64,000 bases of DNA from an uncultured Oscillospiraceae bacterium. GTDB lineage: Bacteria; Bacillota; Clostridia; Acetivibrionales; DTU013. Shown piece by piece: positions 21,842-44,622 of this stretch. Position numbers and translations under genes: made by a program. Location: assembly GCA_964587755.1 (NCBI GenBank), contig CAZPMC010000006.1:5488-69487 (forward strand). The letters are read 5' to 3'. The stretch's first letter is position 1. Every line of letters begins with the position of its first letter. A model generated the notes under the pieces. That model was not told the origin of the DNA and did not search any database. It saw only the letters and a list, made by a program, of their open reading frames with translations.

Positions 21842-23200
21842 ATGGCTAAGCTTGAATTCCCAAAGGATTTTATTTGGGGCATCGGCAACGGTGCATATCA
21901 ATCCGAAGGTGGATACAATGAGGACGGAAGAGGCGAGACTATTTGGGACCGCTACTGTCACATACCCGGCCGGATTATTGACGGCGCCAGCGGTGATGTC
22001 ACATCGGATTTTTACCATAGGTATAAAGAGGACATTGCCCTGATGAAAAAGATGGGTATTCCGAACTTTCGCATGTCAATTTCCTGGGCGAGGATAATAC
22101 CTGACGGGAGAGGCGAAATAAATGAAAAGGGTATAGCCTTCTATCATTCTGTTTTGGATGAGCTGATAAAAAATGGTATCGAGCCCATGGTAAACCTTTA
22201 CATGTGGGATTTGCCACAGAAGCTGCAGGATATCGGAGGATGGGCAAATAGAGATGTGACAGATTACTTTGAAAGATATTGCCGGATTGTATTTAAGGAA
22301 TACGGCTCTAAGGTCAAGACCTGGCTTACATTTGATGAACCCTTCTGCTGTGCGTTTATAGGCAATTACCTGGGAACATACGCACCAGGGCTTACGGATT
22401 TCTCCACTGCTCTTTTGGTAAGCTACAATATGCTTCTTGCCCATGGCAAGGCTGTAAAAGCGTGCCATGAAATAATACCTGATGCAAAAATCGGTATAGC
22501 ACTAAACCTTTCAGACTGCAAAAGTGCAACTGACAAGAAGGAAGATATTGAAGCAGCAATTCGCGCAGACGGCTACCGTAACCGCTGGTTCCTGGATCCG
22601 ATTTACAAGGGAAGCTTCCCGCAGGACATGCTTGATTGGTACGAAAAACAGGGAGTAGTTATGCCAGAAATATTGCCGGAGGATTTGAAAATCATGTCCG
22701 AGCCACAGGATTTCCTGGGAATTAACTTCTATTCACCTCATTTCTACGTACATGACGAACAGGTCTGGCCAATAAAGCTGACTGGAGTTAAGGTAGGATA
22801 CCCGGTAAATTATATTAATTGGGAAATTGTGCCTGAGGCAATTTACAACATCCTCACCCGTGTTAAAAAAGATTACGGGGATATTGAGATAAAAATTACT
22901 GCCAACGGCAACTGTACTACGGATATTATCAATCGTGAGCACAAGCTTCTGGATGATGAGCGTATTGATTATATGTACAATCATCTTATACAGATAAATA
23001 AAGCAATTGAAGAAGGCATTCGTGTTACAGCGTATTATGCATTCTGCTTTACCGACAACCTTGAATGGACCCTTGGCTTTACTAAACGTTTCGGCCTTGT
23101 GTATGTTGATTTTAAGACTCAGGAGAGGATAGTCAAGGAAAGCGGTCACTGGTATTCTAAGGTAATAAGGGACAATGGCTTCGAGCTGGTTGACAAATAG
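21842..23200 (+). CDS. glycoside hydrolase family 1-like protein with a non-canonical active site
   Basis: Full-length GH1 fold (AYQSEGG, FRMSISWARIIPDG, NLEW, KRFGLVYVD). The TENG nucleophile motif reads ITANG (Ala354, GCC 22901-22903), NEP reads DEP (D165-E166), and YHWDLP reads YMWDLP (M121). Confidence 0.85.
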   Translation: MAKLEFPKDFIWGIGNGAYQSEGGYNEDGRGETIWDRYCHIPGRIIDGASGDVTSDFYHRYKEDIALMKKMGIPNFRMSISWARIIPDGRGEINEKGIAFYHSVLDELIKNGIEPMVNLYMWDLPQKLQDIGGWANRDVTDYFERYCRIVFKEYGSKVKTWLTFDEPFCCAFIGNYLGTYAPGLTDFSTALLVSYNMLLAHGKAVKACHEIIPDAKIGIALNLSDCKSATDKKEDIEAAIRADGYRNRWFLDPIYKGSFPQDMLDWYEKQGVVMPEILPEDLKIMSEPQDFLGINFYSPHFYVHDEQVWPIKLTGVKVGYPVNYINWEIVPEAIYNILTRVKKDYGDIEIKITANGNCTTDIINREHKLLDDERIDYMYNHLIQINKAIEEGIRVTAYYAFCFTDNLEWTLGFTKRFGLVYVDFKTQERIVKESGHWYSKVIRDNGFELVDK

Positions 23201-23263
23201 AATTTTGGAAGGCAATAGTTTTAAGCGATATAAATTTGGAATGATAGGAGATGGATAACTGCA

Positions 23264-24619
23264 ATGCGTGAATGTGATTTAATACTTGGAGGAAGCTACC
23301 TTCTCGCAATGGATGATAATGACACCCGAATCAGAAATGGTGGTGTGGCAATTAAAGATGGCAAGATTATTGCACTTGCGGAAATATCCGAGTTGAGAAA
23401 TCAGTATAAACCGAAAGAGGAAATCGTACACGAAAATGCAGTTATCCTCCCGGGCTTGATTGATGCTCATACCCATGAAACTTTAACAAGGGGCCTGCAT
23501 GAGGACCTCCCATTGATGCGGTGGTTGGAAGAGGTATGCTACCCCGTTGAGGCAAGCTATACACCGGAAGATATATATGCCGCTGCACTGATGACACAGA
23601 TGGAGCTTATACGCGGTGGAGTTACGACTTTTATTGATATATTCAGATATGCAGACCAAGCTATAAAGGTCATTGAAAAGTCCGGAATGAGAGCCATATT
23701 TACTCCCCAGTTTTTTGATGAGACTTCTGATACGCTGGAGAGTATTGATAAAACAGTGGATTTGATTGAGAAATATCATGGCAGCCAAAACGGCCGTGTC
23801 AGTGTCTGGTTTGGACCTCACGCACCTTATTCCTGCGGCCCCGAAAGCTATGCAAGGGCCGCTGAGCTTTCGAAAAAACTCGGTGTCGGAGTCCATACTC
23901 ATATGTGTGAGACAAAGGCAGAGGTTCAATTAATAAAAGAAAGATACGGAAAGGATCCTGTAGAATACCTCCATGAGGCAGGCGTTCTAGATGTTCCCTG
24001 TGTTTTGGCCCACTCTATCTACCTGACAGATGAAAATATTTCACTGTTGGCAAAGAAGCGGGATACTGCAGGACTTGTATATAACCCCATAAGCAATATG
24101 AAAATAGCCGATGGAATAGCAAGAATACCTGAGCTTCTTTCGGCGGGCTGTACGGTCGGCTTGGGCACTGATTCCAATTTATCTAACAATGGATTGGATA
24201 TGTTTGCAGAAATGCGCATAGGAAGTTACCTGCAGAAGGTGTTTAATGATGATGCGACCATAATGCCATGCTTTGAAATGCTAAAGCTGGCAACACGCGG
24301 CAGTGCAAAGGTTCTAAAAATGGAAGACAAAATAGGAAGCTTAGAACCCGGAAAATGTGCTGATGTTATTGCTGTAAGCTTCAGTAAACCGCATATGTGG
24401 CCTATTTATTATGAGAATCCAAGTAATATTGTTGAGCAGATTGTCTACTCGGCACGCGCTTCAGATGTTATAACAACTATAGTTGATGGTAAGGTTTTAA
24501 TGGATAATTATGTTATCCGGACACTTGATGAGAAAGGTGCTTTTGAGTTTATACAAAAAAGGGCAATGGATTTATATGCACGCAGCTTTCCAGACAGGGT
24601 AAGCAGTGAGAAAATATAA
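23264..24619 (+). CDS. amidohydrolase, MtaD/nucleoside-nucleobase deaminase-like (paralog 3)
   Basis: LPGLIDAHTHE..RGLHEDLPLMRWLEE, HTHMCE, a GTDS motif and GSLEPGKCADVIAV. Confidence 0.8.
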   Translation: MRECDLILGGSYLLAMDDNDTRIRNGGVAIKDGKIIALAEISELRNQYKPKEEIVHENAVILPGLIDAHTHETLTRGLHEDLPLMRWLEEVCYPVEASYTPEDIYAAALMTQMELIRGGVTTFIDIFRYADQAIKVIEKSGMRAIFTPQFFDETSDTLESIDKTVDLIEKYHGSQNGRVSVWFGPHAPYSCGPESYARAAELSKKLGVGVHTHMCETKAEVQLIKERYGKDPVEYLHEAGVLDVPCVLAHSIYLTDENISLLAKKRDTAGLVYNPISNMKIADGIARIPELLSAGCTVGLGTDSNLSNNGLDMFAEMRIGSYLQKVFNDDATIMPCFEMLKLATRGSAKVLKMEDKIGSLEPGKCADVIAVSFSKPHMWPIYYENPSNIVEQIVYSARASDVITTIVDGKVLMDNYVIRTLDEKGAFEFIQKRAMDLYARSFPDRVSSEKI

Positions 24620-24650
24620 ATATTTAAGCATGAGGAAGGAGCCAGTTAAG

Positions 24651-27434
24651 ATGAATGAAATAAAACTTACAGTAAACGGGAAACAGGTTACTGCTACCAA
24701 TCCAGAAATGACTCTTCTGAAATTCCTGCGCGAAGAATTGGGACTTGTTGGTGCAAAAGACGGGTGCAGCAGAAGCCAATGCGGTTCTTGTACGGTAATA
24801 GTAAATAAAAAAGCTGTTACTGCCTGTTCACAGAAGATGAAGAGGCTTGAGGGGGCAATTGTTGAAACTATAGAAGGATTGGCAGACGGCGACAAGCTCC
24901 ATCCCTTGCAGATTGCGTTTATGAAATTAAGTGCATTTCAGTGCGGCTTCTGTACTCCTGGAATGATAATGAAGGCTAAGGAGCTTTTAGACAAAAATCC
25001 TGACCCGTCGGAGGAAGAAATAAAAGAAGCATTAAAGAGAAACATTTGCCGCTGCACAGGGTACAAAAAGATTGTTGAAGCTGTTCAGCTGGCTGCCCGG
25101 ATTTTAAGCGGCAAAGAAGCAGTTGATTTATATGATGACGACGGCAGGGTAGGAGACCGTACTGTTCGTACCGATGCCCTTAGAAAGGTAAAGGGTCATC
25201 CTGTATACACCGATGACTACAAGCTGGTTAAACCGCTACAAGGGAAAATGCTGTTTTCTGAGTATCCTCATGCAAAGATATTGTCTATTGATATTGAAGA
25301 GGCGAAAAAAATGCCTGGTGTTGCTGCAATTGCTCTTTATAAAGACGTTCCCGGGCGAAAGGTATTTGGACAGGGAATGGTTCCGAATCAGCCTGTTATC
25401 GCAGGTGACATTGTCCGCTTTGTAGGCGATCCGGTGGCGGTAGTTTACGCGGATACAGAGGAACAAGCCTATGCAGCAATGGAACGTATTAAGGTCGAGT
25501 ATGAACCGCTGCCTGTCCTTACTTCCCCAAGAGAAGCCATGAAAGAGGATGCATTCAAGATATATGATGAGGGCAATATTCTTAAGCACCATCATACTCA
25601 CAAGGGAAATGTGGACAGGGGCTTTGAACAGTCAGATATCATAATTGAGGATACCTATTATACTCAATGTATTGATCATGGTTATATGGAGCTGGATGCA
25701 GCCCTTGCAGAATATGACGAAAATGGCAGGCTGATAGTGTACGGCTCTGTGCAGAATCCGTTAGGTCTGGTTAAGGACATAGCTGCGTGCCTGGCATTGG
25801 ACGAGGACAAGGTCCGTGTAGTTATCCGTCCAAACGGCGGTGCCTTCGGCGGAAGAGAAGAGCCTTCAGTTCATATCCAGGCAGCTTTAGGAACCCTGAT
25901 GACTGGAAGACCTGTAAGAATGGTTTTCAGCCGTGAAGAATTAAATATATTCTCAACAAAACGCCATGCAATGGAATTAAAATATAAAATCGGTGCTACC
26001 AAAGATGGCAAGCTGATGGCTATTAAGGCTGAGACTGTTGGTGATACAGGAGCCTATGATTCTTCAGGTGAATTTGTTTTATTCCGTGCATGCGTGTTTG
26101 GAGCAGGACCATATGAGATTCCAAATGCCTGGATGGACAGCTATGCAGTGTATACAAACAATGCAAATGCCGCTTCGATGCGCGGTTTTGGAAGCACCCA
26201 GCCATGCCTGGCAATGGAAGCAATGCTTGACAGGGTGGCAGAGGCATGCAACATTGACCCCTTTGAAATTCGCAGGATAAACGGATTGGATATTGGAAAG
26301 CAGACAATTACCGGCCATGTAATTGATTACGGAATAGGTTTTAAAGAAGCCCTTAATGCTATAGAAAGAGAAGTTAAGAAAGACGGATTGCCAGAACCTT
26401 CAGGTCCGAATAAGAAGATAGGTATCGGTATAGCAGGCAGTATGAAGAACGTCGGTCTGGGCTCGGGCTCTGAAGACTCTGCATGGGCTCAGATGCGTCT
26501 GGGTGAGGATGGGAAGATTGTTGTTATGATGGGTGCCGTTGAATTCGGACAAGGCTGCGATACGGTTATGGCTCAGATTGCAGCAGAGACTTTGGGTGTA
26601 TCCATCAGAAATATCCGGATGGCTCCGGTAGACACGGAATATACTCTCGACGGCGGGATTACAACTGCTTCAAGACAGACATTCGTTTCAGGCAATGCAG
26701 TTAAGACAGTCGGAAGCATTTTTAAGAACACTATGCTAAATTACGTTTCGGAAGTCTCCAAGATACCTGTTGGATATCTTGAATGTGACAAGGACGGAAT
26801 ATATGACGTACGTAAAGGGCAAAGCTTCAGGATGAGCTTTGAAGAACTGGCAAAGACAGCAAAGCAAAATAATCGTGATATACATGAAAAATATTATTAT
26901 GTTGCTCCTGAGACAAGACCTTTAAAGGAATGCTCGGATAACTTATCAAACGATGTGGTCGGACACAGGCTTCATTTCTCATACTGCTTCGGCGTACAGG
27001 CTGTAATTGTCGAGGTGGACGAGGAAACCGGAGAAGTGAAGGTGCTTCGTGCTTATGCCGCAAACGATGCAGGCCGTGCAATCAACCCTGCCCTCGTAGA
27101 AGGCCAAATCGAGGGTGGCGTTGCCATGGGAATCGGTTACGCACTTTCAGAGAACTTTGAAATGAAAGACGGGTATGTGGTGTCTAAGGAATTTAAAGAT
27201 CTGGGACTTCCAAGGTCAACAGATATCCCGACTGACATAAGGACAATTATTGTAGAAGAAAATCACCCTTATGGGCCCTTCGGTGCTAAAGGAATGGGTG
27301 AGTTGCCGTTGAATGCAACTGCACCGGCAATCTTAAATGCAATTTATGATGCTGTCGGAGTTAGAATAACATCATTACCTGTTAAGCCGGAAAAGCTTTC
27401 AGAGCTTATTAAGGATAAGAAAAAAAGTAGTTAG
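24651..27434 (+). CDS. molybdopterin-dependent hydroxylase, fused [2Fe-2S] plus Mo-binding subunit (XdhD-like, xanthine dehydrogenase family)
   Basis: 927 aa from ATG 24651. N-terminal CSRSQCGSCTV and QCGFCTPG [2Fe-2S] motifs, GGAFGGRE, and C-terminal PFGAKGMGE. No FAD-binding subunit gene is adjacent. Confidence 0.85.
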   Translation: MNEIKLTVNGKQVTATNPEMTLLKFLREELGLVGAKDGCSRSQCGSCTVIVNKKAVTACSQKMKRLEGAIVETIEGLADGDKLHPLQIAFMKLSAFQCGFCTPGMIMKAKELLDKNPDPSEEEIKEALKRNICRCTGYKKIVEAVQLAARILSGKEAVDLYDDDGRVGDRTVRTDALRKVKGHPVYTDDYKLVKPLQGKMLFSEYPHAKILSIDIEEAKKMPGVAAIALYKDVPGRKVFGQGMVPNQPVIAGDIVRFVGDPVAVVYADTEEQAYAAMERIKVEYEPLPVLTSPREAMKEDAFKIYDEGNILKHHHTHKGNVDRGFEQSDIIIEDTYYTQCIDHGYMELDAALAEYDENGRLIVYGSVQNPLGLVKDIAACLALDEDKVRVVIRPNGGAFGGREEPSVHIQAALGTLMTGRPVRMVFSREELNIFSTKRHAMELKYKIGATKDGKLMAIKAETVGDTGAYDSSGEFVLFRACVFGAGPYEIPNAWMDSYAVYTNNANAASMRGFGSTQPCLAMEAMLDRVAEACNIDPFEIRRINGLDIGKQTITGHVIDYGIGFKEALNAIEREVKKDGLPEPSGPNKKIGIGIAGSMKNVGLGSGSEDSAWAQMRLGEDGKIVVMMGAVEFGQGCDTVMAQIAAETLGVSIRNIRMAPVDTEYTLDGGITTASRQTFVSGNAVKTVGSIFKNTMLNYVSEVSKIPVGYLECDKDGIYDVRKGQSFRMSFEELAKTAKQNNRDIHEKYYYVAPETRPLKECSDNLSNDVVGHRLHFSYCFGVQAVIVEVDEETGEVKVLRAYAANDAGRAINPALVEGQIEGGVAMGIGYALSENFEMKDGYVVSKEFKDLGLPRSTDIPTDIRTIIVEENHPYGPFGAKGMGELPLNATAPAILNAIYDAVGVRITSLPVKPEKLSELIKDKKKSS

Positions 27435-27458
27435 TAAAGGTTGGAAAGAGGATTTAAT

Positions 27459-28655
27459 ATGGACAAAAAATTTTCATTGGCACCAATACAGAGGAAGGCT
27501 ACTGATAACAACAAGTTTCTCAGCGTAGAGCTGGGTGAACAGGTTGTAAATTATCACAAAAGCTTTCCTGCCTATGAGCAAACACCTTTAACCGATTTAC
27601 CAGAGCTTGCAAGGGAAATCGGAATCGAAAAGCTATATGTTAAGGATGAATCTTACCGATTCGGGCTTAATGCATTTAAGGTATTGGGCGGTAGCTACAG
27701 TATAGGTGCTTATCTCGCAAAAAGGTTACAGCTTGCTCCAAATCAGATAAACTACGGGACCCTCTGCTCTGATGCTGTCCGTGAGAAGCTGGGCGTACTA
27801 ACATTTGTCACTGCGACCGATGGGAATCACGGTCGCGGTGTGGCATGGACCGCACGGGAGCTCGGACACAAATCAGTGGTGTACATGCCTCATGGCAGCT
27901 CAGATGAGAGATTAGAAAATATAAGGGCAGAGGGCGCCGAAGCTGAGATACTTGACATGAATTATGATGAGGCTGTCAGGCTGGCAAATAAAATGGGTAA
28001 AGAGCATGGATGGATTATGGTACAGGATACGGCATGGGAAGGCTATGAGGAGATACCCCGCTGGATTATGCAGGGGTATTTGACGATGGCATATGAGGCT
28101 GCCACGCAACTGAAAGACCAAGTCCCGACTCATGTATTCTTGCAGGCAGGTGTCGGTTCATTGGCAGGGGCTGTTGCAGGTTACCTGGCTAATTACTATG
28201 GCAATAACAAGCCACAGATTGTTGTAGTTGAGCCGAATAAGGCAAACTGCATTTACAGGACTGCTGCTGCAGCTGACGATAAGCTGCACTTTGTAACAGG
28301 CAAGCTGGATACACTAATGGCAGGTTTAGCTTGTGGAGAGCCAAACCGGATAGGTTGGGAAATATTACAGGAGACTGCAGAATATGCAATATCGTGTCCT
28401 GATTGGGTAGCTGCTAAGGGAATGAGAATTTTGGCCGCTCCTATCGGAAACGACAGTAAAGTGATTTCAGGTGAAAGCGGAGCGGTTACCACAGGACTGG
28501 TCGCCCAAATCATGACAGACCCTGATTTAGCATGGATGAAGGATGAGCTGAAAATTGACAGCACGTCAAAAATCCTTTGTTTCAGTACTGAGGGGGATAC
28601 AGACAAGGAAAATTACCGCCGTATCATTTGGGACGGTGCTTACCCTGGGCTTTAA
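27459..28655 (+). CDS. dpaL: diaminopropionate ammonia-lyase (PLP-dependent), YgeX-like
   Basis: 398 aa. KDESYRFGLNAFKVLGG matches the YgeX/DpaL lysine motif region, and TATDGNHGRGVAW is present. Confidence 0.85.
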   Translation: MDKKFSLAPIQRKATDNNKFLSVELGEQVVNYHKSFPAYEQTPLTDLPELAREIGIEKLYVKDESYRFGLNAFKVLGGSYSIGAYLAKRLQLAPNQINYGTLCSDAVREKLGVLTFVTATDGNHGRGVAWTARELGHKSVVYMPHGSSDERLENIRAEGAEAEILDMNYDEAVRLANKMGKEHGWIMVQDTAWEGYEEIPRWIMQGYLTMAYEAATQLKDQVPTHVFLQAGVGSLAGAVAGYLANYYGNNKPQIVVVEPNKANCIYRTAAAADDKLHFVTGKLDTLMAGLACGEPNRIGWEILQETAEYAISCPDWVAAKGMRILAAPIGNDSKVISGESGAVTTGLVAQIMTDPDLAWMKDELKIDSTSKILCFSTEGDTDKENYRRIIWDGAYPGL

Positions 28656-29566: not shown

Positions 29567-29589
29567 ATATGAAAGGCAGGAGTACTCAT

Positions 29590-33688: not shown

Positions 33689-33706
33689 ATAGTCAGATAT
33701 GACTAT
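33689..33706. promoter_or_regulatory. 18-bp palindrome ATAGTCA-GATA-TGACTAT at the rpiB/mcp junction
   Basis: Perfect 7-bp inverted repeat overlapping the rpiB stop codon. It shares the TGACTA core with the direct repeats at 35205-35223. Confidence 0.3.
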
Positions 33707-36703: not shown

Positions 36704-36825
36704 TAACCACATTACAAAAATATAACAATACATAAATTATTAATCCTGTATATAATATGCTAATTTTCAAACTTTTATATTTGTTAGGTACCGTCAAGGG
36801 ATCAAAATAAAAAGGAGGAAATTCA

Positions 36826-37923: not shown

Positions 37924-37981
37924 ACTAATTACAGATCCAGCAAAGAACAAAAATCGGTGAGAACGTCTTCATTAAGCAGAC

Positions 37982-38006
37982 AAGCCTTCTCAATTTGAGA
38001 AGGCTT
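37982..38006 (+). other. perfect intercistronic hairpin after the binding-protein gene
   Basis: AAGCCTTCTCA-att-TGAGAAGGCTT (11-bp stem) with no following T-run. Lies 16 nt upstream of the ATPase start codon. Confidence 0.6.
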
Positions 38007-38022
38007 CCTGCGGGGAGGTTTA

Positions 38023-39573
38023 ATGAATAATATCATTGAAATGAGAAATATCGTCAAGAAATTTGGCGACTTTGTAGCTAACGATAATATTAATCTTGAA
38101 GTCAGAGAAGGAGAGATACATGCCTTGCTCGGTGAAAACGGAGCAGGTAAAAGTACTCTTATGAATGTACTGTATGGACTATATTCTCCCGATGGAGGGG
38201 AAATATATTTCAAGGGAGAAAAGGTCGAAATTAAAGGACCCTGTGATGCCATCAAATTGAATATCGGTATGGTTCATCAACACTTCATGTTAATACCTGT
38301 ATTTACCGTAGCCGAGAACCTGATACTTGGGGCTGAACCGGTTAAAGGCATATCCCTCGACATCAAGAAGGCAATATCACAAATCGAAACAGTTTCAAAG
38401 GAGTACGGCCTTGCTGTTGACCCTAATGCGCTGATTTCCAATATATCTGTTGGAATGCAGCAAAGAGTTGAAATTCTTAAGGTTTTGCTCCGCGGAGCTA
38501 AGGTTTTAATTTTTGACGAGCCGACAGCTGTTTTGACACCACAAGAAATAACTGAATTCTTTGGGATATGCAGAACCCTTCAGGCTCGTGGACATACGAT
38601 TATTATAATCACACACAAGCTTAAGGAAATAAAACAGATAAGTGACAGGGTTACTGTTATAAGAAAAGGTAAGAATATCGGGACTGTTGACACAAACACT
38701 GTCAGTGAACAGGACTTAGCCGAAATGATGGTTGGCAGAAAGGTTATACTGTGTGCAAATAAGAGTGAACAGGAATGTGGTTCACCGGTTCTTGAAATAG
38801 AGGATCTGCACGCAAATAATTACAGAGGCCTGCCAGCACTGCAAGGCTTGTCCTTGAAGGTATGTGCCGGCGAAATAGTGGGAATCGCAGGCGTTGAAGG
38901 CAACGGGCAGACAGAGCTGGCCCTTGTATTGAAAAAGCTTATAAACAAGACTAAAGGAACAATAAAGTTCTGCGGTAAGGAATATACAAAGAAAACTACA
39001 ACCCAGGGACTTATCGATGCAGGCCTTGCTCATATCCCTGAGGATAGGCAGAAACACGGCTTGATTTTGAACTTTTCCATAAAAGAAAATCTTATACTTG
39101 GATGCGAAGACAAGTCAGAATTTACAAAAAGCGTGTTTTTAGATGAGAAAAAAATCAGTTCTTACGGAGATGTTTTAATAGAAGAGTATGATATTAGATG
39201 CAGGGGAGCTGACATGCTGGCAGGAGGATTGTCGGGAGGAAATCAGCAAAAAGTCATACTGGCTCGTGAAATCTCGAGAAATCCTAAGCTGTTAATCGTA
39301 TCGCAGCCGACAAGAGGGCTTGATGTCGGCGCTATAGAGTATGTACATGCCCAGCTTCTTGAACAAAGGAAAAAGGGTTGTGCAATATTGCTGATATCCT
39401 ATGAGCTGGACGAAATAATGTCCTTAAGTGATAGAATACTGACAATTTACAACGGGAAAATTGTTTCAGAACACAGATGCTGCGATGTGACAAGAGAAAC
39501 GATCGGACTAGCAATGACAGGCATAACACAACACAAACAAGTAAACGATACGTCCCAAGAAGGAGTACAATGA
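38023..39573 (+). CDS. ABC transporter ATP-binding protein with duplicated ABC domains (nucleoside/sugar type)
   Basis: 516 aa. Walker A GENGAGKST, the first signature region, a second domain with LSGGNQQK, and Walker B. Confidence 0.9.
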   Translation: MNNIIEMRNIVKKFGDFVANDNINLEVREGEIHALLGENGAGKSTLMNVLYGLYSPDGGEIYFKGEKVEIKGPCDAIKLNIGMVHQHFMLIPVFTVAENLILGAEPVKGISLDIKKAISQIETVSKEYGLAVDPNALISNISVGMQQRVEILKVLLRGAKVLIFDEPTAVLTPQEITEFFGICRTLQARGHTIIIITHKLKEIKQISDRVTVIRKGKNIGTVDTNTVSEQDLAEMMVGRKVILCANKSEQECGSPVLEIEDLHANNYRGLPALQGLSLKVCAGEIVGIAGVEGNGQTELALVLKKLINKTKGTIKFCGKEYTKKTTTQGLIDAGLAHIPEDRQKHGLILNFSIKENLILGCEDKSEFTKSVFLDEKKISSYGDVLIEEYDIRCRGADMLAGGLSGGNQQKVILAREISRNPKLLIVSQPTRGLDVGAIEYVHAQLLEQRKKGCAILLISYELDEIMSLSDRILTIYNGKIVSEHRCCDVTRETIGLAMTGITQHKQVNDTSQEGVQ

Positions 39574-40682
39574 TGAATAAGAAGAGCTCGGGTATAAAGA
39601 GTATTTTATACAAAGCGTTAGATATGTTTCTTGACCCCATTATGGCAATAATATTTTCCCTTGTATTGGGAGCTATTATAATAGGGTCACTTGGATATGA
39701 CGTGAGCAAGGCATATAAAGCACTTGCATCAGGCGCATTTGGCAGCATCCGCTCAATTGGTCAGACGCTGCTTGCCGCCACACCTCTTATGTTTACCGCC
39801 ATGGCGTTTTCAATGGCCTACAGGTGCGGAATGTTTAACCTGGGTGGAGAAGGTCAGTTCTATTCGGGTGCCATTTTAGGTGCCTGGGTCGGGTTTGCCA
39901 TTAAGGGATTACCTGCACCGGTGCATATTTTGGTAGTTATTTTAGCAGGTGCCTTGGGGGGTATGATTACTGCATTTGTTCCCGGTATTCTCAAAGCGAA
40001 GCGCGGTGTTCATGAGGTTATAATTTGTATAATGATGAACTACATTGCTATAAATACAACTAATTATCTGGTGAGTTCCGGTGGTCCCCTTCGTCTTGGG
40101 AGCACAATGCCGGCAACACCCATAATACAGGAATCTGCAAAGCTCCCAATTGTGATTAAGGGTACTACTTTTACTGGTGGATTTTTTATAGCATGTCTGA
40201 TAGCCATAATTTATTACTTCTTCTTATGGAAAACGCGTGAAGGTTACAAAATAAGGGCAGTTGGAGGAAACCCTACTGCGGCTGAGTGCGGTGGTATCAG
40301 AAGTACAAAGTATTCTGTAATTGCACTTGTGATTGCGGGAGCAATGGCCGGAATCGGCGGATCTATTGAAATCATTGGAATACATAACAGATTCTATGCA
40401 AATTTCTCTTCAGGCTATGGTTTTGAAGGTGTTGCAGTAAGTATGCTCGGCGGAAACCATCCATTTGGAATCATTCTCTCGTCATTGTTATTCGGCGCCT
40501 TAAAATCAGGTGCTATGGCTATGCAAATTCAAGCGGGGACGAATGCGGAGCTGGTAAAAATCCTCCAAGCTCTTGTAATTTTCTTCATAGCCGGGAAATG
40601 GAGCATTCTGTATTTAATCACAAGGGCGAGAAAAAAGCGTCAAAACAACAAAAGTATGGATTTAAACATGGTCCAGGAATGA
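39570..40682 (+). CDS. ABC transporter permease (BMP-system, first permease)
   Basis: Polytopic membrane protein. The start ATG at 39570/39573 overlaps the ATPase stop, with AGGAG at 39561-39565. The ORF-track start at 39477 is an upstream extension inside the ATPase gene. Confidence 0.85.
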   Translation: MMNKKSSGIKSILYKALDMFLDPIMAIIFSLVLGAIIIGSLGYDVSKAYKALASGAFGSIRSIGQTLLAATPLMFTAMAFSMAYRCGMFNLGGEGQFYSGAILGAWVGFAIKGLPAPVHILVVILAGALGGMITAFVPGILKAKRGVHEVIICIMMNYIAINTTNYLVSSGGPLRLGSTMPATPIIQESAKLPIVIKGTTFTGGFFIACLIAIIYYFFLWKTREGYKIRAVGGNPTAAECGGIRSTKYSVIALVIAGAMAGIGGSIEIIGIHNRFYANFSSGYGFEGVAVSMLGGNHPFGIILSSLLFGALKSGAMAMQIQAGTNAELVKILQALVIFFIAGKWSILYLITRARKKRQNNKSMDLNMVQE

Positions 40683-40695
40683 GGAGGAAACTGCT

Positions 40696-41628
40696 GTGGA
40701 AGAAATTTTATCAATATTTAGCACAGGCTTTTTTGCTTCCGCTCTACGTATGGCAACACCGCTTATACTCGGTGGTATCGGCGCATTGTTCTCGGAGCGA
40801 GCCGGTATATTAAACCTTGGCGTTGAAGGTATGATGCTTATGGGAGCATTTGTTGCAGCTATTACATCACTTTTTACAGGAAGCCCTTGGCTAGGCGTTC
40901 TTGGTGGCGCTGCAGCCGGCGGACTGGTAGGCTTGCTGCATGCTTTCATGTGTATAAAAGTAAAAGCAAATCAAACTGTTATTGGTACAGGTATTAATAT
41001 TATGGCAATGGGGGTTCCCCCCATGATATTGCAGGCGCTCTACGGAAATCCGGGAAGCACACCCAGTGTTCCCAGCCTTAATTCAATAAGCATACCTGGT
41101 TTAAAGAGCGTACCTATTCTCGGTGAAATAATAGGAACACACAACCCGCTTACTTATATTGCTTTGCTGCTTGTACCCATAACCACGTTTTTTCTGTACA
41201 GAATGAAGACCGGACTTCAGATAAGAGCGGTGGGTGAGCATCCATTGGCTGCGGACACTGTGGGTGTTAATGTTTTCAGGATAAAGTACGGCTGTGTTAT
41301 TTTCAGCGGTGTTCTCTCCGGTATAGCCGGTGCATATTTGTCCCTTAGCCAGGTAGCCATGTTTGTAAAGGGAATGACAAACGGGCGTGGATTTATGGCA
41401 ATGGCAGCAATGATATTTGGAAACTGGACACCGGTGGGAGTATTTAAGGGTTCATTGCTGTTTGGTTTTGCAGACAGCCTTCAGATGTCTATTCAGGTTG
41501 CAGGCTGGCCTATACCTACAGACTTTTTGCTCAGCTTGCCTTATATACTGACAATAATTACCCTGGCGGGATTCGTAGGTAAGGCAGTCGGACCAAAGAG
41601 CGTCGGAAAGCCTTACATAAAAGAATAG
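40696..41628 (+). CDS. ABC transporter permease (BMP-system, second permease)
   Basis: 310 aa, polytopic. GTG start 7 nt after GAGGAGG. Confidence 0.85.
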   Translation: MEEILSIFSTGFFASALRMATPLILGGIGALFSERAGILNLGVEGMMLMGAFVAAITSLFTGSPWLGVLGGAAAGGLVGLLHAFMCIKVKANQTVIGTGINIMAMGVPPMILQALYGNPGSTPSVPSLNSISIPGLKSVPILGEIIGTHNPLTYIALLLVPITTFFLYRMKTGLQIRAVGEHPLAADTVGVNVFRIKYGCVIFSGVLSGIAGAYLSLSQVAMFVKGMTNGRGFMAMAAMIFGNWTPVGVFKGSLLFGFADSLQMSIQVAGWPIPTDFLLSLPYILTIITLAGFVGKAVGPKSVGKPYIKE

Positions 41629-41652
41629 CCAGAATAGTTGGGAGTAAAATTA

Positions 41653-43020
41653 ATGCTAGAAAATAAGCAATCTATTTTAATAAAAAACGCTCTTGTAGTA
41701 ACGATGAATCCCCATGATGAAATTTTCCGTGGAAGCATTTACATTGTGGACGGCAGGATTAAAGAAGTCGGTACTAAAAGAGAGACGGCAGACAAGGTGA
41801 TTGATGCCGGCGGCAGAATTGTAATGCCGGGATTTATTCAGACTCACATTCACCTGTGTCAGGTATTGTTCAGGGGATTAGCAGACGACATGGATGTTGT
41901 TGATTGGCTAAAGCATAGAATATGGCCCTTTGAATCAGCACATAATGAGGACTCAATAAATGCGTCGGCGTATCTAGGTATTGCAGAGCTTATTGCCGGC
42001 GGTACAACAACGGCATTAACAATGGAAACCACTCGGTACACCGACGGGGTTTTTTCCGCCATTGAGGAATCAGGATTCCGTGGGTTTTGCGGTAATGCCA
42101 TGATGGATGTGGTAGAGCCGGGAACAATGATGAAAGGACTAAGCACTCAGGAAAGTTTTGATGAGAGCAAGCGCCTTTTCAATACATGGCATGGAAAGGG
42201 AAACGGACGGGTCAATTATACAGTTATGCCCCGGGGAGCCAGAAATTGTTCTCCTGAGCTTGTTAAGCGTTCACATGCTTTTGCCCGGGAAAACGGACTG
42301 TTGCTGCACACCCATGTTTCTGAAAACGGGCCTTTGTCAGAAAGACTTAAAAAAGAAACGGGCTTAGGAGACATTGAGCTTCTCGAAAGTCAGGGCGTAG
42401 CTGACGAAAAACTAGTTGTTGCCCATGCCATATGGCTAAATGAAAATGATGTGGATATTATCAAGCGCAGGGGGGTAAAGATAGCCCATTGCCCTTCTGC
42501 CAATATGAAGCTCAGCTCAGGATTTTGTAAGGTTCCTGAAATGCTTGATATGGGGATTGACATTTCACTTGGCGCTGATGGAGCGCCATGCAACAATAAT
42601 CTGGATATGTTCAATGAAATGCGTCTAGCCAGCCTGATTCACAAGCCAAGATGCGGGCCTACATCAATGAAGGCATATGAGGTATTGAAGATGGCGACAA
42701 TGGGAGGCGCAAAATGCCTCGGAATTGAAAATGAAGTCGGAAGTCTTGAGACAGGCAAAAAGGCTGATATCATCATTATCAATACAGATGAGCTACACTG
42801 CAGTCCTATGGCAGGTGTTCCGGTAGAATCACAAATCGTGTACTCAATCAAGAGCTCAGATGTTGACACTACCATAATTGATGGTGTTGTTTTATATGAA
42901 AACAAAAAGTTTACGATAATGAACAAGAAAAAAATACTTGAGACTGCCGGAAGAGAAATTGAGAGGCTGTTAGACAGGGTGCCATTCGGCAAAGAGCTGA
43001 TAGAGTCGTTGCCGTATTAG
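41653..43020 (+). CDS. amidohydrolase, MtaD/guanine-deaminase-like (paralog 4)
   Basis: MPGFIQTHIHLCQ..RGLADDMDVVDWLKHRIWP, HTHVSE, GADG and GSLETGKKADIIII. ATG 41653 has a TGGGAG RBS. Confidence 0.8.
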   Translation: MLENKQSILIKNALVVTMNPHDEIFRGSIYIVDGRIKEVGTKRETADKVIDAGGRIVMPGFIQTHIHLCQVLFRGLADDMDVVDWLKHRIWPFESAHNEDSINASAYLGIAELIAGGTTTALTMETTRYTDGVFSAIEESGFRGFCGNAMMDVVEPGTMMKGLSTQESFDESKRLFNTWHGKGNGRVNYTVMPRGARNCSPELVKRSHAFARENGLLLHTHVSENGPLSERLKKETGLGDIELLESQGVADEKLVVAHAIWLNENDVDIIKRRGVKIAHCPSANMKLSSGFCKVPEMLDMGIDISLGADGAPCNNNLDMFNEMRLASLIHKPRCGPTSMKAYEVLKMATMGGAKCLGIENEVGSLETGKKADIIIINTDELHCSPMAGVPVESQIVYSIKSSDVDTTIIDGVVLYENKKFTIMNKKKILETAGREIERLLDRVPFGKELIESLPY

Positions 43021-43046
43021 ACGGATTAAAGGAGATGTATTATTTT

Positions 43047-43808
43047 ATGCGGCTTAAAAATAAGGTAGCACTTATAACCGGAGCGGGAACGGGAATGGGC
43101 AGAGAAACTGCAATGGAATTCCTGCGTCAGGGAGCAAAGGTGGTTATAGCTGATATTAATAAGGAAGCACTGGATACGGCAGTAGCCAAGGGGAAGGAAA
43201 TTTCTCCGGATATAACCGGTGTGCATGCAGATCTTACGAATGAAGAAGACTGTAAAAGATTTATTGATACGGCAGTTGAAGCATACGGAACAATAGACGT
43301 ATTGTTTAACAATCTTGGTATTAACCTTGCCGCTACCATAACCCAGACTACTTTAGAGCAGTGGGATAAGATATTTGCCGTAAATGTAAGAGCAATGTTT
43401 TTGACATGCAAGTACACGCTTCCCATAATGATGAAAAACGGGGGCGGTTCCATTATAAACACTTCATCTGGCGGTGGTATTGTTGCGCTTAAGGGACTTG
43501 CGGCATACAGCGCATCAAAGGGCTCTGTAATTTCACTTACCAGAAGTATTGCAGTTGATTATGCACCATATAACATCCGGTGCAATTATCTCGTACCGGG
43601 AGTTATTATGACGGAAATGACTAAAAAGGTAATTGATGAACAGGAGGACCCTGAAGCATACGCTGAAAACATGAGGACTAACAATCCGTTGCAAAGATTC
43701 GGAACAGAAAATGAAATTGCAATGGCAGCTGTATTTTTAGCTTCAGATGATACCAGATTTATGACAGGGGCAGGAGTCGTCGCCGACGGCGGATATTCAG
43801 CCCAATAA
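43047..43808 (+). CDS. SDR-family oxidoreductase (tandem paralog 1)
   Basis: TGAGTGMG cofactor motif, NNLG, and the YSASK catalytic motif. Start chosen by alignment with the paralog beginning MRLKDK. Confidence 0.85.
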   Translation: MRLKNKVALITGAGTGMGRETAMEFLRQGAKVVIADINKEALDTAVAKGKEISPDITGVHADLTNEEDCKRFIDTAVEAYGTIDVLFNNLGINLAATITQTTLEQWDKIFAVNVRAMFLTCKYTLPIMMKNGGGSIINTSSGGGIVALKGLAAYSASKGSVISLTRSIAVDYAPYNIRCNYLVPGVIMTEMTKKVIDEQEDPEAYAENMRTNNPLQRFGTENEIAMAAVFLASDDTRFMTGAGVVADGGYSAQ

Positions 43809-43860
43809 CACGCCAGTAATATCTGATACAAAATTAAAGTACCAACGGAGGATATAAACT

Positions 43861-44622
43861 ATGCGGTTAAAGGATAAAGTAGCAATTATTACCGGAGGCG
43901 CAAAAGGGATGGGCAGAACAAGCGTGCTCAGATTCCTGGAAGAGGGTGCAAAGGTAGTAGTTGCTGATATAGACGAAAAGGGAATGCTTGAAACTGTAGA
44001 ACTAGGCAAGCAGATTAGTGAAAATGTAATAGGCATGAAGGTAGATTTGACAAAGGAAAATGAAGTTAAAAATTTAGTTGATAAAACAGTCGAAGCTTTT
44101 GGGACAATAGATGTGCTTTTTAATAATGCAGGTATGAATCATGCTGCGCTCTTACATGAAACAACCCTGGAGGACTGGGAGCTTGTTTTTGATGTGAATG
44201 TCAAGAGCATGTTTCTCACATGTAAATATGTTCTGCCCATTATGATGGAAAAGCGCAAGGGCTCCATAATAAACACAGCATCACCCGGGGCATTAGTAGG
44301 CTTAAGAGGAATTTCAGCTTATTGCGCATCGAAAGGTGCAGTCCCGTCACTAACAAGAAGTATTGCTATTGACTATGCCCAGTACAATATCAGAGCTAAT
44401 TTTCTGTGCCCGGGTGTTATTTTGACAGAAATGACAGAAAAAATTATTCAGTCCAAGCCGGACCCGGATGAGTTCAGAGAATGGTACCGTAAGGCAAGGC
44501 CGCTGGGACGATTTGGCGAGCCTGTTGAAATAGCAAATGCCGCAGTTTATCTGGCATCAGATGAAACAACATTTATGACAGGTGCCTCCATTGTAGCAGA
44601 TGGTGGGTTTACAGCACAATAA
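43861..44622 (+). CDS. SDR-family oxidoreductase (tandem paralog 2)
   Basis: TGGAKGMG, NNAG and YCASK. Collinear with the upstream SDR along its whole length. Confidence 0.85.
   Translation: MRLKDKVAIITGGAKGMGRTSVLRFLEEGAKVVVADIDEKGMLETVELGKQISENVIGMKVDLTKENEVKNLVDKTVEAFGTIDVLFNNAGMNHAALLHETTLEDWELVFDVNVKSMFLTCKYVLPIMMEKRKGSIINTASPGALVGLRGISAYCASKGAVPSLTRSIAIDYAQYNIRANFLCPGVILTEMTEKIIQSKPDPDEFREWYRKARPLGRFGEPVEIANAAVYLASDETTFMTGASIVADGGFTAQ

Follow-up and report, generated by a model that had tools for sequence, protein, structure and literature searches.

A nucleoside-type importer joined to a reductive uric-acid-type gene cluster in uncultured Bacillota, with an atypical GH1-fold protein as candidate sugar-removing enzyme

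The window, by which we mean the whole 64-kb stretch of DNA analysed, carries a catabolic supercluster of ~36 kb (about 15410-51108), the core of which is the interval 21842-44622 singled out in a preliminary description. Pfam was searched with all 56 plausible open reading frames (ORFs) of the window, and NCBIfam with the key ones; every gene named in that description was found where it had been placed. Fourteen related loci, about 11 of them distinct, were fetched, and the carriers are uncultured anaerobic Bacillota only. Common to all 14 is a module of substrate-binding lipoprotein (SBP), ABC system, deaminase, SDR and 2-hydroxyacid dehydrogenase. In the ~11 distinct loci, this BMP importer-deaminase-SDR-GRHPR-like module is fused to a uric-acid-type cluster, and sugar-handling and purine genes are interleaved in every variant. 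The purine-related genes of the window, apart from those of import, are the following:

15410-16765, + strand: SsnA-like TRZ/ATZ-family amidohydrolase, candidate for the ring-cleaving step (best NCBIfam model SsnA, 302 bits, cut-off 444)
16686-18044, + strand: M20 (ArgE/DapE-type) deacylase, candidate ureido-group hydrolase (Pfam Peptidase_M20 and M20_dimer)
18101-19189, + strand: UacX/PydA(PreA)-like FMN reductase with 2x[4Fe-4S], probably dearomatising (DHO_dh and Fer4; PreA/DHODH matches)
19095-20393, + strand: YgeY-family M20 hydrolase (passes NF009555, 432 versus 321 bits)
20417-21838, + strand: TRZ/ATZ-family amidohydrolase without the HxxE catalytic Glu (motif NFHVAG; Pfam/NCBIfam and motif check)
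23264-24619, + strand: TRZ/ATZ-family deaminase-like amidohydrolase with HxH and HxxE intact, always beside the Mo enzyme
24606-27434, + strand: XdhD-like molybdenum hydroxylase with 2x[2Fe-2S], hammerhead and MoCo domains and no FAD subunit (Pfam/NCBIfam)
27441-28655, + strand: 2,3-diaminopropionate ammonia-lyase (YgeX), predicted last step to pyruvate (passes TIGR03528, 612 versus 532 bits)
35303-36601, + strand: HyuA-like hydantoinase/dihydropyrimidinase (30% identity to Escherichia coli HyuA)
50530-51108, + strand: MocA-type molybdenum cofactor cytidylyltransferase, probably serving the XdhD-like enzyme (TIGR03310, 178 bits, just under the cut-off of 186)

By homology, the genes at 15410-28655 appear to form a reductive uric-acid (2,8-dioxopurine) cluster of the Clostridioides difficile type, a pathway that has been reconstituted experimentally (10.1101/2025.05.19.654654) and that was overlooked in the preliminary description. 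The reductase at 18101-19189 has the same architecture as C. difficile UacX (10.1101/2025.05.19.654654), and the window's counterparts of E. coli XdhD (28% identity over the full length), YgeY (19095-20393, 32%) and YgeX (49%) accompany it in the cluster; the window's best match to E. coli SsnA is the protein at 15410-16765 (28%). The first M20 protein scores 214 bits with the NCBIfam DapE-ArgE model and 166 bits with YgeY. The amidohydrolase with intact motifs adjoins the XDH-like gene in 10 of the 14 loci. As a reductive uric-acid pathway, the left half would therefore account for the fate of the base. Import is encoded to its right:

36826-37923, + strand: BMP/PnrA-family SBP with a putative nucleoside-type pocket (PF02608, 211 bits; lipobox LFAGC)
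38023-41628, + strand: ABC ATPase with two fused ABC domains (38023-39573) and two BPD_transp_2 permeases (39477-41628), by Pfam; in 14/14 related loci
41638-43020, + strand: adenosine-type (5'-deoxyadenosine/MTA/SAH) deaminase-like amidohydrolase (passes NF005557, 545 versus 522 bits)

The preliminary description had proposed a nucleoside importer of the BMP/PnrA type, and such a system, with an ABC part of the CUT2 type, indeed occupies 36826-41628. The closest solved relative of the SBP is Clostridium thermocellum Lbp (7x0r), crystallised with guanosine bound (PMC9601137); other close structures, 4pev and 2fqw (PnrA), are likewise nucleoside binders. The PnrA/BmpA ligand residues F36, D108, F186 and D238, whose roles have been described (PMC13325309, PMC7093131), are invariant in 28 SBP orthologues, which thus all keep the aromatic sandwich of PnrA as well as the Asp pair that binds ribose. 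From this pocket we infer an importer of the nucleoside-binding kind. The deaminase, with the MTA/SAH deaminase 4f0r as its best PDB match, lies directly 3' of the permeases in all 14 loci. The remaining genes are mostly concerned with sugars:

28802-29566, + strand: DeoR-family regulator, sugar-phosphate-sensing type (HTH_DeoR and DeoRC)
29569-31094, + strand: TtdA/TtdB-type Fe-S dehydratase, L-tartrate dehydratase-like (alpha subunit passes NF006084, 501 versus 365 bits)
31119-31778, + strand: deoxyribose-phosphate aldolase DeoC (passes TIGR00126, 175 versus 117 bits)
31940-33658, - strand: methyl-accepting chemotaxis protein within the cluster (HAMP and MCPsignal; conserved in L001 and L007)
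33703-34164, - strand: RpiB-type pentose(-phosphate) isomerase (passes TIGR01120)
34175-35044, - strand: xylose-isomerase-like TIM barrel, relative of ketose/uronate 3-epimerases (best NCBIfam model IolO, 231 bits, cut-off 300)
43035-44622, + strand: two classical SDRs, generic by sequence (Pfam/NCBIfam)
44600-45595, + strand: D-2-hydroxyacid dehydrogenase of the glyoxylate/hydroxypyruvate/2-ketoaldonate reductase type (GRHPR-like), in 14/14 loci
45657-47929, + strand: archaeal-type (type II) GAPDH and PGK paralogue (Pfam/NCBIfam)
47926-49709, + strand: split transketolase, N and C subunits (Pfam/NCBIfam)
49746-50513, + strand: gluconate-5-dehydrogenase-like SDR (NF005983, 377 bits, under the cut-off of 408)

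DeoC, RpiB and transketolase, which had been named as the cluster's pentose-phosphate genes, are thus present, the last in split form. DeoC recurs in L001, L005, L009, L011, L012, L013 and L090; the DeoR regulator is its immediate upstream neighbour in L005 and L013, and in L001 and L090, as in the window, TtdAB lies between the two. In L088, the TtdA/TtdB-type dehydratase is contiguous with the type II GAPDH and PGK. The island is not self-contained: it cannot make the pentose phosphates on which DeoC, RpiB and transketolase depend.

The preliminary description had further pointed out that the usual nucleoside-splitting enzymes are missing, and this holds over the 56 ORFs of the window, none of which matches PNP_UDP_1, IU_nuc_hydro, pyrimidine-nucleoside phosphorylase, phosphopentomutase or ribokinase (Pfam, with NCBIfam for key ORFs). 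The window's only PfkB-family kinase (8919-9992, beyond the interval considered earlier) has 2-keto-3-deoxygluconate-kinase types as its best NCBIfam matches and no ribokinase match there, and is KDG-kinase-like. In seven annotated relatives of the locus, too, Pfam finds no phosphorylase, IUNH hydrolase, mutase or ribokinase among the genes called within +/-10 kb, and none occurs among the called genes of L001-L007 and L088-L090; nor is deoD, pdp or deoB part of any of the about 11 distinct cluster variants, the longest of which has about 35 genes. As an argument, however, absence from a 64-kb window is weak and has no bearing on the remainder of the genome. The same absence is the norm around distant BMP importers: of the families represented by the 140 ORFs nearest to them in 67 genomes, the 25 commonest (those with one member being unlisted) include no nucleoside phosphorylase, hydrolase or PfkB kinase, so that absence by itself carries little weight.

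One way of covering the missing step, put forward in the preliminary description, is a route in which an SDR oxidises the nucleoside sugar and the TIM-barrel protein then eliminates the base, as in 3-keto-glycoside/C-glycoside pathways. 3'-Keto-nucleosides readily shed their base, and in all 14 loci the importer has two SDR genes beside it, one of the SDR_X type and the other W-type or gluconate-5-dehydrogenase-like. By sequence, these SDRs look like generic reductases of the glucose, butanediol and acyl types. The TIM barrel is a member of PF01261, which includes 3-keto-glycoside lyases and epimerases as well; it matches 6wn6 weakly, and L012 has an extra GFO_IDH_MocA and PF01261 pair after its 2-hydroxyacid dehydrogenase. 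Against this, the best PDB matches of the window's TIM barrel are TM0416 (135 bits) and the D-allulose and L-ribulose 3-epimerases, with 3-keto-glucoside epimerase at 73 bits, and neither a GFO/IDH/MocA nor a GMC oxidoreductase is encoded in the window. The TIM-barrel gene is divergently paired with that of RpiB, and roughly half of the loci have no copy within +/-10 kb; the protein is therefore an improbable eliminase, and we regard a route through an SDR and the TIM barrel, with no part for GH1, as very improbable.

The other suggestion of the preliminary description, whose interpretation is partly supported overall, was the GH1-fold protein, and here the case has strengthened:

21842-23200, + strand: GH1-fold protein of a subfamily specific to the cluster (533 bits with the TIGR03356 beta-glucosidase model, above its cut-off of 478)

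Its description as atypical is borne out: the nucleophile motif reads ITANG in place of ITENG (codon 354 is GCC, two changes from a Glu codon), and the acid/base motif DEP in place of NEP. Glu166 is kept, with Asn165 replaced by Asp, His121 by Met, Trp398(401) by Phe and Glu354 by Ala. The protein belongs to a clade of 54 members at >=58% identity, to which ordinary BglA reaches at most 54%. Throughout the clade, position 121 is Met or Trp and position 398(401) Phe, and Asp stands at 165 in 51/54, whereas the opposite state is fixed at all three positions in 66 outgroup sequences (100%); Q20, E166, Y297, E408 and W409 are retained in every member. In eight of the 54 members, Ala or Gly replaces the nucleophile; these fall into >=3 lineages including basal ones, which amounts to at least three separate replacements, the window copy among them. 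The gene is still under purifying selection (dN 0.14-0.32 with dS saturated, also between two nucleophile-less copies). Through the changes at His121 and Trp398, every member has lost two glycone ligands, the classical ones around O2/O3, and the -1 subsite of the subfamily appears remodelled, with a dispensable nucleophile.

Wherever sequence reaches, GH1 is embedded in the cluster (its site lies beyond the fetched range in 4 of about 11 distinct loci), and GH1 and SBP orthologues are located on the same contigs, judging by contigs of equal length. The order PreA-(M20)-amidohydrolase-GH1-amidohydrolase-XDH, or GH1 followed by an ECF transporter, is found in L004, L005, L006, L009, L013, L088, L089 and L090; the amidohydrolase directly upstream is always of the 20417-21838 type, as in the order PreA-(M20)-amidohydrolase-GH1 of L006, L088, L089 and L090.

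This setting admits a reading without any glycosidic step, in which free purines or some other N-heterocycle enter through the BMP system, GH1 cuts a purine-derived ring and the sugar genes belong to a separate carbon metabolism. A precedent exists in soybean hydroxyisourate hydrolase, which is classed in GH1 but acts on a purine ring and in which glucose-binding residues have been lost (PMC1781453). GH1 is flanked by ring-opening amidohydrolases, some BMP proteins (AtzT, 3s99) bind bases, and the substrate assignment of the XDH-like enzyme is putative. We nevertheless consider this reading quite unlikely. AtzT has a Tyr/Trp and Asn/Glu pocket, unlike the Phe/Phe sandwich and ribose-binding Asp pair of the window's SBP; the deaminase after the permeases is of a nucleoside-acting type; sugar and purine genes are interleaved throughout; and every step of the published pathway has a candidate in the window without GH1. 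The soybean enzyme, moreover, depends on its nucleophile Glu, and the GH1 clade does not.

The explanation that we favour, with a confidence just short of even, is that the importer takes in purine (deoxy)nucleosides or close analogues, the adjoining deaminase strips the exocyclic amine (as its family membership suggests), and the base is broken down to pyruvate, NH3 and CO2 by the XdhD-like Mo enzyme, the UacX-like reductase, the SsnA-/HyuA-like ring openers, the M20 ureidohydrolases and YgeX, in an order of steps that we infer by homology. One large, conserved cluster would then unite an importer of the nucleoside type with the reductive uric-acid pathway that was described only recently. 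The N-glycosidic bond would most likely be cut by GH1, tentatively the likeliest dedicated sugar-removing enzyme. Since Glu166 is kept, the O2/O3 glycone ligands are lost and a double-displacement nucleophile is apparently unneeded, cleavage may be nucleophile-independent. The likeliest chemistry would be acid-assisted dissociative hydrolysis of an N-glycoside, in which Asp165/Glu166 activate either water or the leaving group; beta-elimination from a sugar pre-oxidised by one of the adjacent SDRs is an alternative. The freed, unphosphorylated sugar would pass to the SDRs and GRHPR-like dehydrogenase that always accompany the importer, which would account for a cluster without kinase, phosphorylase or mutase. 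If so, this would be a new way of stripping sugar from a purine.

Several observations count against GH1 in this role. It lies among the ring-degrading genes, away from the importer; the nucleophile Glu is present in 46/54 members, so that a classical mechanism may operate in most; and GH1 enzymes are pyranosidases, with no N-ribosidase known to us among them. DeoC, RpiB, transketolase and type II GAPDH, which pass curated models of enzymes acting on phosphorylated sugars, and the DeoR-type regulator point instead to pentose phosphates. A hydrolase and SDRs cannot yield these, and phosphate must therefore be added outside the cluster or by an unrecognised activity, the simplest candidates being PNP and phosphopentomutase, genes for which are, to our knowledge, present in nearly all Clostridia.

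The main rival accordingly assigns cleavage to housekeeping purine/pyrimidine nucleoside phosphorylases and phosphopentomutase encoded elsewhere, with DeoC, RpiB, transketolase, GAPDH and PGK of the cluster fermenting the pentose phosphates and GH1 doing another job. Outside help is required in any case, phosphorolysis spares ATP, which matters to a fermenter, and the BMP importers of the 67 other genomes do without a nucleosidase among their commonest neighbours. We rate this rival as unlikely, if a serious contender: a cluster holding its own versions of such usually housekeeping functions as RpiB, transketolase, GAPDH, PGK, DeoC and MocA has no deoD, pdp or deoB, and the altered GH1, the SDRs and the 2-hydroxyacid dehydrogenase are left without explanation. 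Nor does it sit well with the PGK paralogue, which lacks the phosphate ligand Arg65 (motif AHQGDT).

In the window, the reductive purine pathway carries a conserved, nucleoside-linked extension that includes a mechanistically remodelled GH1-fold protein (GH1). Pfam was scanned over all 56 plausible ORFs of the window and NCBIfam over the relevant ones, and every gene named in the preliminary description is present where that description placed it. The 64 kb come from a spore-forming Firmicute, have a GC content of ~42%, and extend from T-box-preceded ilv/leu genes on the left to MazG and YabQ on the right. Nearly all genes between 15410 and 51108 lie on the plus strand, in the following order:

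15410 onward: SsnA-like amidohydrolase, M20 protein, PydA/PreA-like FMN/Fe-S reductase, YgeY-family M20 protein
Next: TRZ/ATZ amidohydrolase, GH1 (21842-23200, plus strand), TRZ/ATZ amidohydrolase, XdhD-like Mo enzyme, diaminopropionate ammonia-lyase
Next: DeoR regulator, TtdAB, DeoC
Next, on the minus strand: MCP, RpiB, xylose-isomerase-like TIM barrel (34175-35044)
Next: hydantoinase, BMP/PnrA-type lipoprotein (SBP; 36826-37923, plus strand), ABC ATPase, two permeases
Next: adenosine-type deaminase (41638-43020, plus strand), two SDRs (43035-44622, plus strand), glyoxylate/hydroxypyruvate-reductase-like 2-hydroxyacid dehydrogenase
Ending at 51108: type II GAPDH, PGK, split transketolase, gluconate-5-dehydrogenase-like SDR, MocA

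The T-box leader (300-537, 106 bits), upstream of an ilvB-ilvN-ilvC-leuA operon, is the window's sole Rfam match above threshold. Rfam gave no riboswitch, whether of the purine, 2'-dG, xanthine, or any other type, in the intergenic sequence preceding the importer or in that preceding the first gene of the cluster, and a promoter and terminator scan performed no better than on shuffled sequence.

The left half of the cluster matches a reductive uric-acid cluster, so a known pathway accounts for what happens to the base. This anaerobic pathway was elucidated only in 2025, for free purines alone, when it was reconstituted in two preprints (including 10.1101/2025.05.19.654654). It starts with XdhD, which yields 2,8-dioxopurine, and this is dearomatised by YgfK or, in C. 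difficile, by the PydA-like UacX; ring opening by SsnA and HyuA is followed by removal of the ureido groups by YgeY and YgeW/UacY, and YgeX delivers pyruvate. Like the clusters of E. coli (ygeW-xdhD), C. difficile, and C. sporogenes, the window encodes an FAD-less XdhD-like enzyme, a PydA/UacX-like reductase, SsnA-like and HyuA-like amidohydrolases, YgeY, YgeX, and MocA. Curated cut-offs are passed by YgeX (49% identity to the E. coli protein) and YgeY. The SsnA-like (302 vs 444 bits) and HyuA-like (245 vs 393 bits; best match D-hydantoinase) amidohydrolases fall below theirs and are 28-30% identical to the E. coli proteins. The reductase consists of PF01180 and two Fer4 domains, without an FAD domain, and is PydA-like. 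The Mo enzyme combines Fe-S and MoCo parts without an FAD subunit, an architecture that matches the urate-to-isoxanthine XdhD type; its identity is 28% to XdhD and 31% to XdhA, it stays below the cut-off of the Se-dependent XDH model (719 vs 830 bits), and the XdhD-specific Glu606 falls in a segment without usable alignment.

Unlike the published clusters, this one has two or three extra TRZ/ATZ amidohydrolases and, in place of YgeW/YqeA or UacY, a second M20 protein; no carbamoyltransferase, carbamate kinase, or D-aminoacylase was found in the window. The TRZ/ATZ amidohydrolase that always precedes GH1 (20417-21838) lacks both the catalytic Glu of HxxE (NFHVAG) and the P-x-E Glu retained by two deaminase-like paralogues, and is probably not a deaminase. 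The cluster is also fused to a nucleoside-type importer, GH1, and sugar-handling genes, whereas neither preprint mentions nucleosides, such transporters, a glycosidase, or sugar-handling genes; the nucleoside-type front end is new relative to these published descriptions of the pathway. The cluster is bordered on the minus strand (11577-15096) by a FecCD-type ABC system (Peripla_BP_2, FecCD, ATPase) and a THEP1-like NTPase_1; such a system, plus a MocA-like gene, also occurs in a related locus (L002, 2628-6817) and may supply metal or cofactor to the Mo enzyme.

SBP matches PF02608 at 211 bits, and its lipobox (LFAGC, residues 21-25) marks it as a lipoprotein. It belongs to a CUT2-like system, with one ATPase bearing two ABC domains and two BPD_transp_2 permeases, that is kept in all 14 related loci retrieved around SBP. 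The solved structures most similar to it all belong to nucleoside binders: C. thermocellum Lbp (7x0r, 190 bits), 4pev, T. pallidum PnrA, BmpA, S. pneumoniae PnrA, and BmpD. Lbp is named after laminaribiose, and a laminaribiose binder would imply a beta-glucoside importer feeding an ordinary GH1; we rejected this idea, as the Lbp crystal structure holds guanosine and the transporter mutant still grows on laminaribiose (PMC9601137). Ligand residues were taken from the BmpD and BmpA papers (PMC13325309, PMC7093131), mapped via PnrA and Lbp alignments, and surveyed in 28 SBP orthologues with at least 53% identity. Phe36, Asn37, Asp108, Phe186, and Asp238 (PnrA numbering) are invariant in all 28, and with them the aromatic base sandwich (Phe36/Phe186, window F75/F221) and two ribose ligands (Asp108/Asp238, window D147/D268). 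A further ribose ligand, Lys260, is present in the window as K286 and kept in only 15 of the 28; close by, at the position of Gln241, K271 is invariant.

The system thus resembles characterised PnrA/BMP systems in its Bmp lipoprotein, fused double ATPase, paired BPD_transp_2 permeases, base sandwich, and both ribose Asp residues. It differs from them in that SBP is only ~30-40% identical to any characterised member, that Phe161, Gly212, and Gln241 are replaced by Trp, Ser, and Lys, respectively, in all orthologues, and that the importer sits in a catabolic rather than a salvage cluster. AtzT, which binds bases only, has a Tyr/Trp sandwich and Asn/Glu hydrogen bonds, unlike SBP. Directly after the permeases lies the deaminase gene, whose product exceeds the NCBIfam cut-off for 5'-deoxyadenosine deaminase (545 vs 522 bits) and whose nearest relative of solved structure is an MTA/SAH deaminase. 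Given the SBP relatives, the invariant ligand residues, and this adjacent adenosine-type deaminase, sequence points to a nucleoside or close analogue as the likeliest cargo.

A genome scan with SBP alone gave no confirmed relative, and one with an SBP alignment did. SBP orthologues are confined to uncultured Bacillota, in MAGs that carry the labels Candidatus Pelethousia, Oscillospiraceae, Christensenellaceae, or Clostridia; 14 loci (~11 distinct) were retrieved. SBP, the ATPase, both permeases, the deaminase, an SDR_X-type SDR, the second SDR, and the 2-hydroxyacid dehydrogenase are always contiguous in these loci, and the second TRZ/ATZ amidohydrolase adjoins the Mo enzyme in 10 of 14. The unit of RpiB, TIM barrel, and hydantoinase is variable, as are DeoC, transketolase, transaldolase, GAPDH-II/PGK, and TtdAB. 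None of these cluster partners occurs beside distant SBP homologues. The embedded MCP (31940-33658, minus strand), whose N-terminal sensor domain has no family assignment, recurs in two related loci (L001 and L007), a pattern suggestive of chemotaxis towards the substrate. Related clusters also encode a conserved protein of ~303-311 aa without a Pfam or NCBIfam match (L003 3329-4240; L004 4706-5617; L009 19726-20649; L012 19956-20867; and, in loci centred on GH1, L088 8392-9327 and L089 2102-3028). It always follows an ECF transporter composed of two ATPases, CbiQ, and a riboflavin/QueT-like S component; tblastn located neither of these, protein or ECF module, in the window.

The preliminary description had noted the lack of any canonical enzyme for splitting nucleosides or phosphorylating the sugar, and this was borne out: nucleoside phosphorylase, IUNH hydrolase, pyrimidine-nucleoside phosphorylase, phosphopentomutase, and ribokinase have no match among the 56 window ORFs. 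PF01048, PF00591, and PF01156 likewise have no match in these ORFs or in the called genes of L001-L007 and L088-L090, and the nucleosidase, kinase, and mutase families are missing from the called genes of those seven related loci (+/-10 kb) and three GH1-centred loci. The only PfkB proteins, one in the window (8919-9992) and one in L014, are KDG-kinase-like. We rejected the former as the missing ribokinase, its NCBIfam matches being 2-keto-3-deoxygluconate-kinase types. It adjoins a GntR regulator and 6-phosphogluconate dehydrogenase (together 8110-11520, just left of the cluster), and the related PfkB of L014 (6791-8314) lies directly before RpiB and the importer, beside an enolase-superfamily dehydratase and an IclR regulator; both neighbourhoods hint at a sugar-acid branch.

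As a control, 67 more distant BMP importers (35-40% identity; from Syntrophobacteraceae, Poribacteria, Actinomycetota, and others) were examined together with the two closest ORFs on either flank, giving 140 neighbour ORFs. Nucleoside phosphorylase, nucleoside hydrolase, and PfkB kinase are not among the 25 most recurrent families of these neighbours (single-member families unlisted), so BMP importers are not usually accompanied by a nucleosidase. The absence is real but uninformative by itself, and a 64-kb window cannot speak for the genome. PF06439, the 3-keto-disaccharide-hydrolase family, accounts for 7 of the 140 neighbours of these distant importers (L015-L087), one of them with an identified locus (L083 3636-4316, Candidatus Poribacteria); ThyX (7) and dUTPase_2 (4) recur likewise.

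The GH1 protein matches PF00232 at 534 bits and lies above the beta-glucosidase equivalog cut-off. Compared with BglA structures, its acid/base motif is DEP instead of NEP, with Glu166 kept, and its nucleophile motif is ITANG instead of ITENG; the nucleophile position is thus Ala354, encoded by GCC, which is two changes from any Glu codon. A database search delimited a clade of 54 proteins with at least 58% identity, sharply bounded, with ordinary BglA following at 54% or less. At positions invariant in an outgroup of 66 sequences, His121 is replaced by Met or Trp and Trp398 (window residue 401) by Phe in 54 of 54 members, and Asn165 by Asp in 51, while Gln20, Glu166, Tyr297, Glu408, and Trp409 are kept in all. 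The canonical -1 subsite comprises Gln20, His121, Asn165, Tyr296, Trp398, Glu405, and Trp406 (P. polymyxa BglA numbering), and the replaced residues are those that contact the glycone at O2 and O3 in classical GH1 enzymes (P. polymyxa BglA complex).

Of the 54 members, 8 have Ala or Gly as the nucleophile residue and 46 have Glu. In a neighbour-joining tree, the Ala/Gly members fall in the basal branches, in one isolated branch, and in the sub-branch of the window, which includes a 90%-identical relative with Glu. A sequencing error or pseudogene was rejected as the source of the Glu-to-Ala change, given the two-change codon, the recurrence of this state in seven further proteins of other assemblies, and dN far below dS. 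With dN at 0.14-0.32 and synonymous sites saturated, also between two nucleophile-less copies, the protein is maintained. That GH1 is a natural phosphorylase, with phosphate replacing the nucleophile, is unlikely, since 46 of 54 members keep Glu.

Wherever the surroundings are visible, GH1 directly follows the TRZ/ATZ amidohydrolase lacking the HxxE Glu, which in most of these loci itself comes after the PydA-like reductase; on its downstream side GH1 has either the second amidohydrolase with the Mo enzyme or an ECF transporter. GH1 and SBP orthologues share contigs in at least six further cases (contigs matched by length). GH1 absence was shown in no locus, and its expected position lies beyond the retrieved range in four distinct loci. 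GH1 is fixed in this cluster and not in the published uricolytic clusters, and correlates with the importer-and-sugar add-on.

These observations lead us to favour GH1, tentatively and somewhat short of probable, as the most likely dedicated sugar-removing enzyme, because it is a fixed part of the cluster, is its only glycosidase-like protein, and need not follow the textbook mechanism. Judged from the catalytic site, double displacement is not required, and in at least the Ala/Gly354 members the textbook GH1 mechanism cannot, on the residues present, operate. The chemistry we prefer would be N-glycoside hydrolysis driven by leaving-group activation. Plausibly, an adjacent SDR would instead first oxidise the sugar and GH1 would then act as an eliminase, with Asp165 near C2 as the base, a variant that would also explain the hydrophobic replacements around O3. 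In either case the sugar would leave unphosphorylated, which fits the constant SDRs and GRHPR-like dehydrogenase and the lack of kinase, phosphorylase, and mutase. In literature searches, nothing relevant emerged on either a GH1 N-glycosidase or a pathway that cleaves nucleosides oxidatively.

Several points stand against GH1 as the sugar remover. GH1 enzymes are pyranosidases, most clade members retain the nucleophile, and the gene is located among ring-opening genes. This last position would suit a non-glycosidic role in purine-ring hydrolysis, combined with base import, which we consider quite improbable. Altered GH1s are known: plant myrosinases, soybean hydroxyisourate hydrolase, and Klotho likewise retain the fold with canonical residues replaced and substrate class changed. 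Myrosinase lacks the acid/base Glu, not the nucleophile. In the present clade, unlike in myrosinase and the soybean enzyme, an invariant acid/base Glu is combined with Asp in place of Asn165 and a facultative nucleophile, and the proteins are bacterial and operon-embedded. The soybean enzyme, a GH1 acting in purine catabolism by hydrolysing the hydroxyisourate purine ring, is a precedent for a non-glycosidic role and keeps its HENG nucleophile motif (PMC1781453).

A further point is that DeoC (above the TIGR00126 cut-off, 175 vs 117 bits), RpiB, transketolase, type II GAPDH, and the DeoR-type regulator suggest pentose phosphates, which a hydrolase cannot provide; the cluster thus depends on outside help under either reading. 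The main rival accordingly has a housekeeping phosphorylase and phosphopentomutase, encoded elsewhere, supply the pentose phosphates, a possibility we rate as real but rather unlikely. Like the deo operon (deoC-deoA-deoB-deoD with DeoR), the cluster links DeoC and a DeoR-family regulator to nucleoside uptake; unlike it, no cluster variant has a phosphorylase or phosphopentomutase.

An oxidise-then-eliminate route through the SDRs and the TIM barrel had also been put forward. The cluster resembles such systems (GH4/GH109; DgpA-DgpBC and CarA-CarBC; bacterial 3-keto-glycoside systems) in having dehydrogenases and a PF01261 TIM barrel by a glycoside importer, and in the nucleophile-independent cleavage implied for GH1. 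It differs in that, in the window, SDRs alone stand in for the GFO/IDH/MocA or GMC oxidoreductases that accompany a PF01261 lyase in such systems, and the TIM barrel is an epimerase relative. The eliminase role proposed for this TIM barrel is weak: the nearest relatives of the protein are TM0416 and ketose 3-epimerases, and it is paired with RpiB and often absent. Among the loci, only L012, on a Christensenellaceae chromosome, carries GFO_IDH_MocA and a second PF01261 TIM barrel (6850-8864, between the 2-hydroxyacid dehydrogenase and DeoC); this pair is a hallmark of 3-keto-glycoside cleavage systems, and oxidative cleavage is thus not far-fetched in this cluster family.

The cluster points to a way for some anaerobes to channel whole nucleosides into the reductive uric-acid pathway, and pinpoints a GH1 subfamily defined by sequence (DEP motif, Met/Trp121, Phe401, facultative nucleophile). 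Were GH1 an N-glycosidase or lyase, it would represent a new reaction type in one of the best-studied glycosidase families and open a new entry into purine turnover in gut and sediment; if not, the cluster is still useful as an extended set of markers by which nucleoside-linked uricolysis can be traced in uncultured lineages of Oscillospiraceae, Christensenellaceae, and Pelethousia. In a fuller reading, which we regard as doubtful, a GH1-fold family that has given up its double-displacement nucleophile would act on purine N-glycosides or on ring-opened intermediates that still bear ribose. Cleavage would proceed through hydrolysis assisted by the leaving group or, after oxidation of the sugar by an SDR, through beta-elimination, and the sugar would enter a kinase-free, largely non-phosphorylative route through the SDRs and the GRHPR-like dehydrogenase. 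In some genomes, type II GAPDH and a PGK lacking Arg65 would convert an aldehyde via an acyl-phosphate to an acid, with ATP formation, before dehydration by TtdAB. If this is true, whole nucleosides would be fermented by anaerobes that use no phosphorylase, mutase, or ribokinase to do so.

The PGK paralogue is archaeal-like (best PDB match 2cun) and has Asp or Gly at the 3-phosphate ligand Arg65 (SHxGRP to AHQGD/G) in all four copies (window 46676-47929; L001 19855-21093; L007 3743-5002; L088 10390-11628), with Arg38, Arg122, and Arg170 kept; its substrate may be other than 3-phosphoglycerate. In L088 (9371-13142), type II GAPDH, PGK, TtdA, and TtdB are contiguous (window counterparts 29569-31094 and 45657-47929), an order that suggests conversion of an aldehyde via an acyl-phosphate to an acid with ATP formation, followed by Fe-S dehydration to a 2-oxo acid, for example from tartrate semialdehyde or glyceraldehyde to oxaloacetate or pyruvate. 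GAPDH, PGK, and TtdAB, together with the gluconate-5-dehydrogenase-like SDR and transketolase, recall 5-ketogluconate-to-tartrate chemistry.
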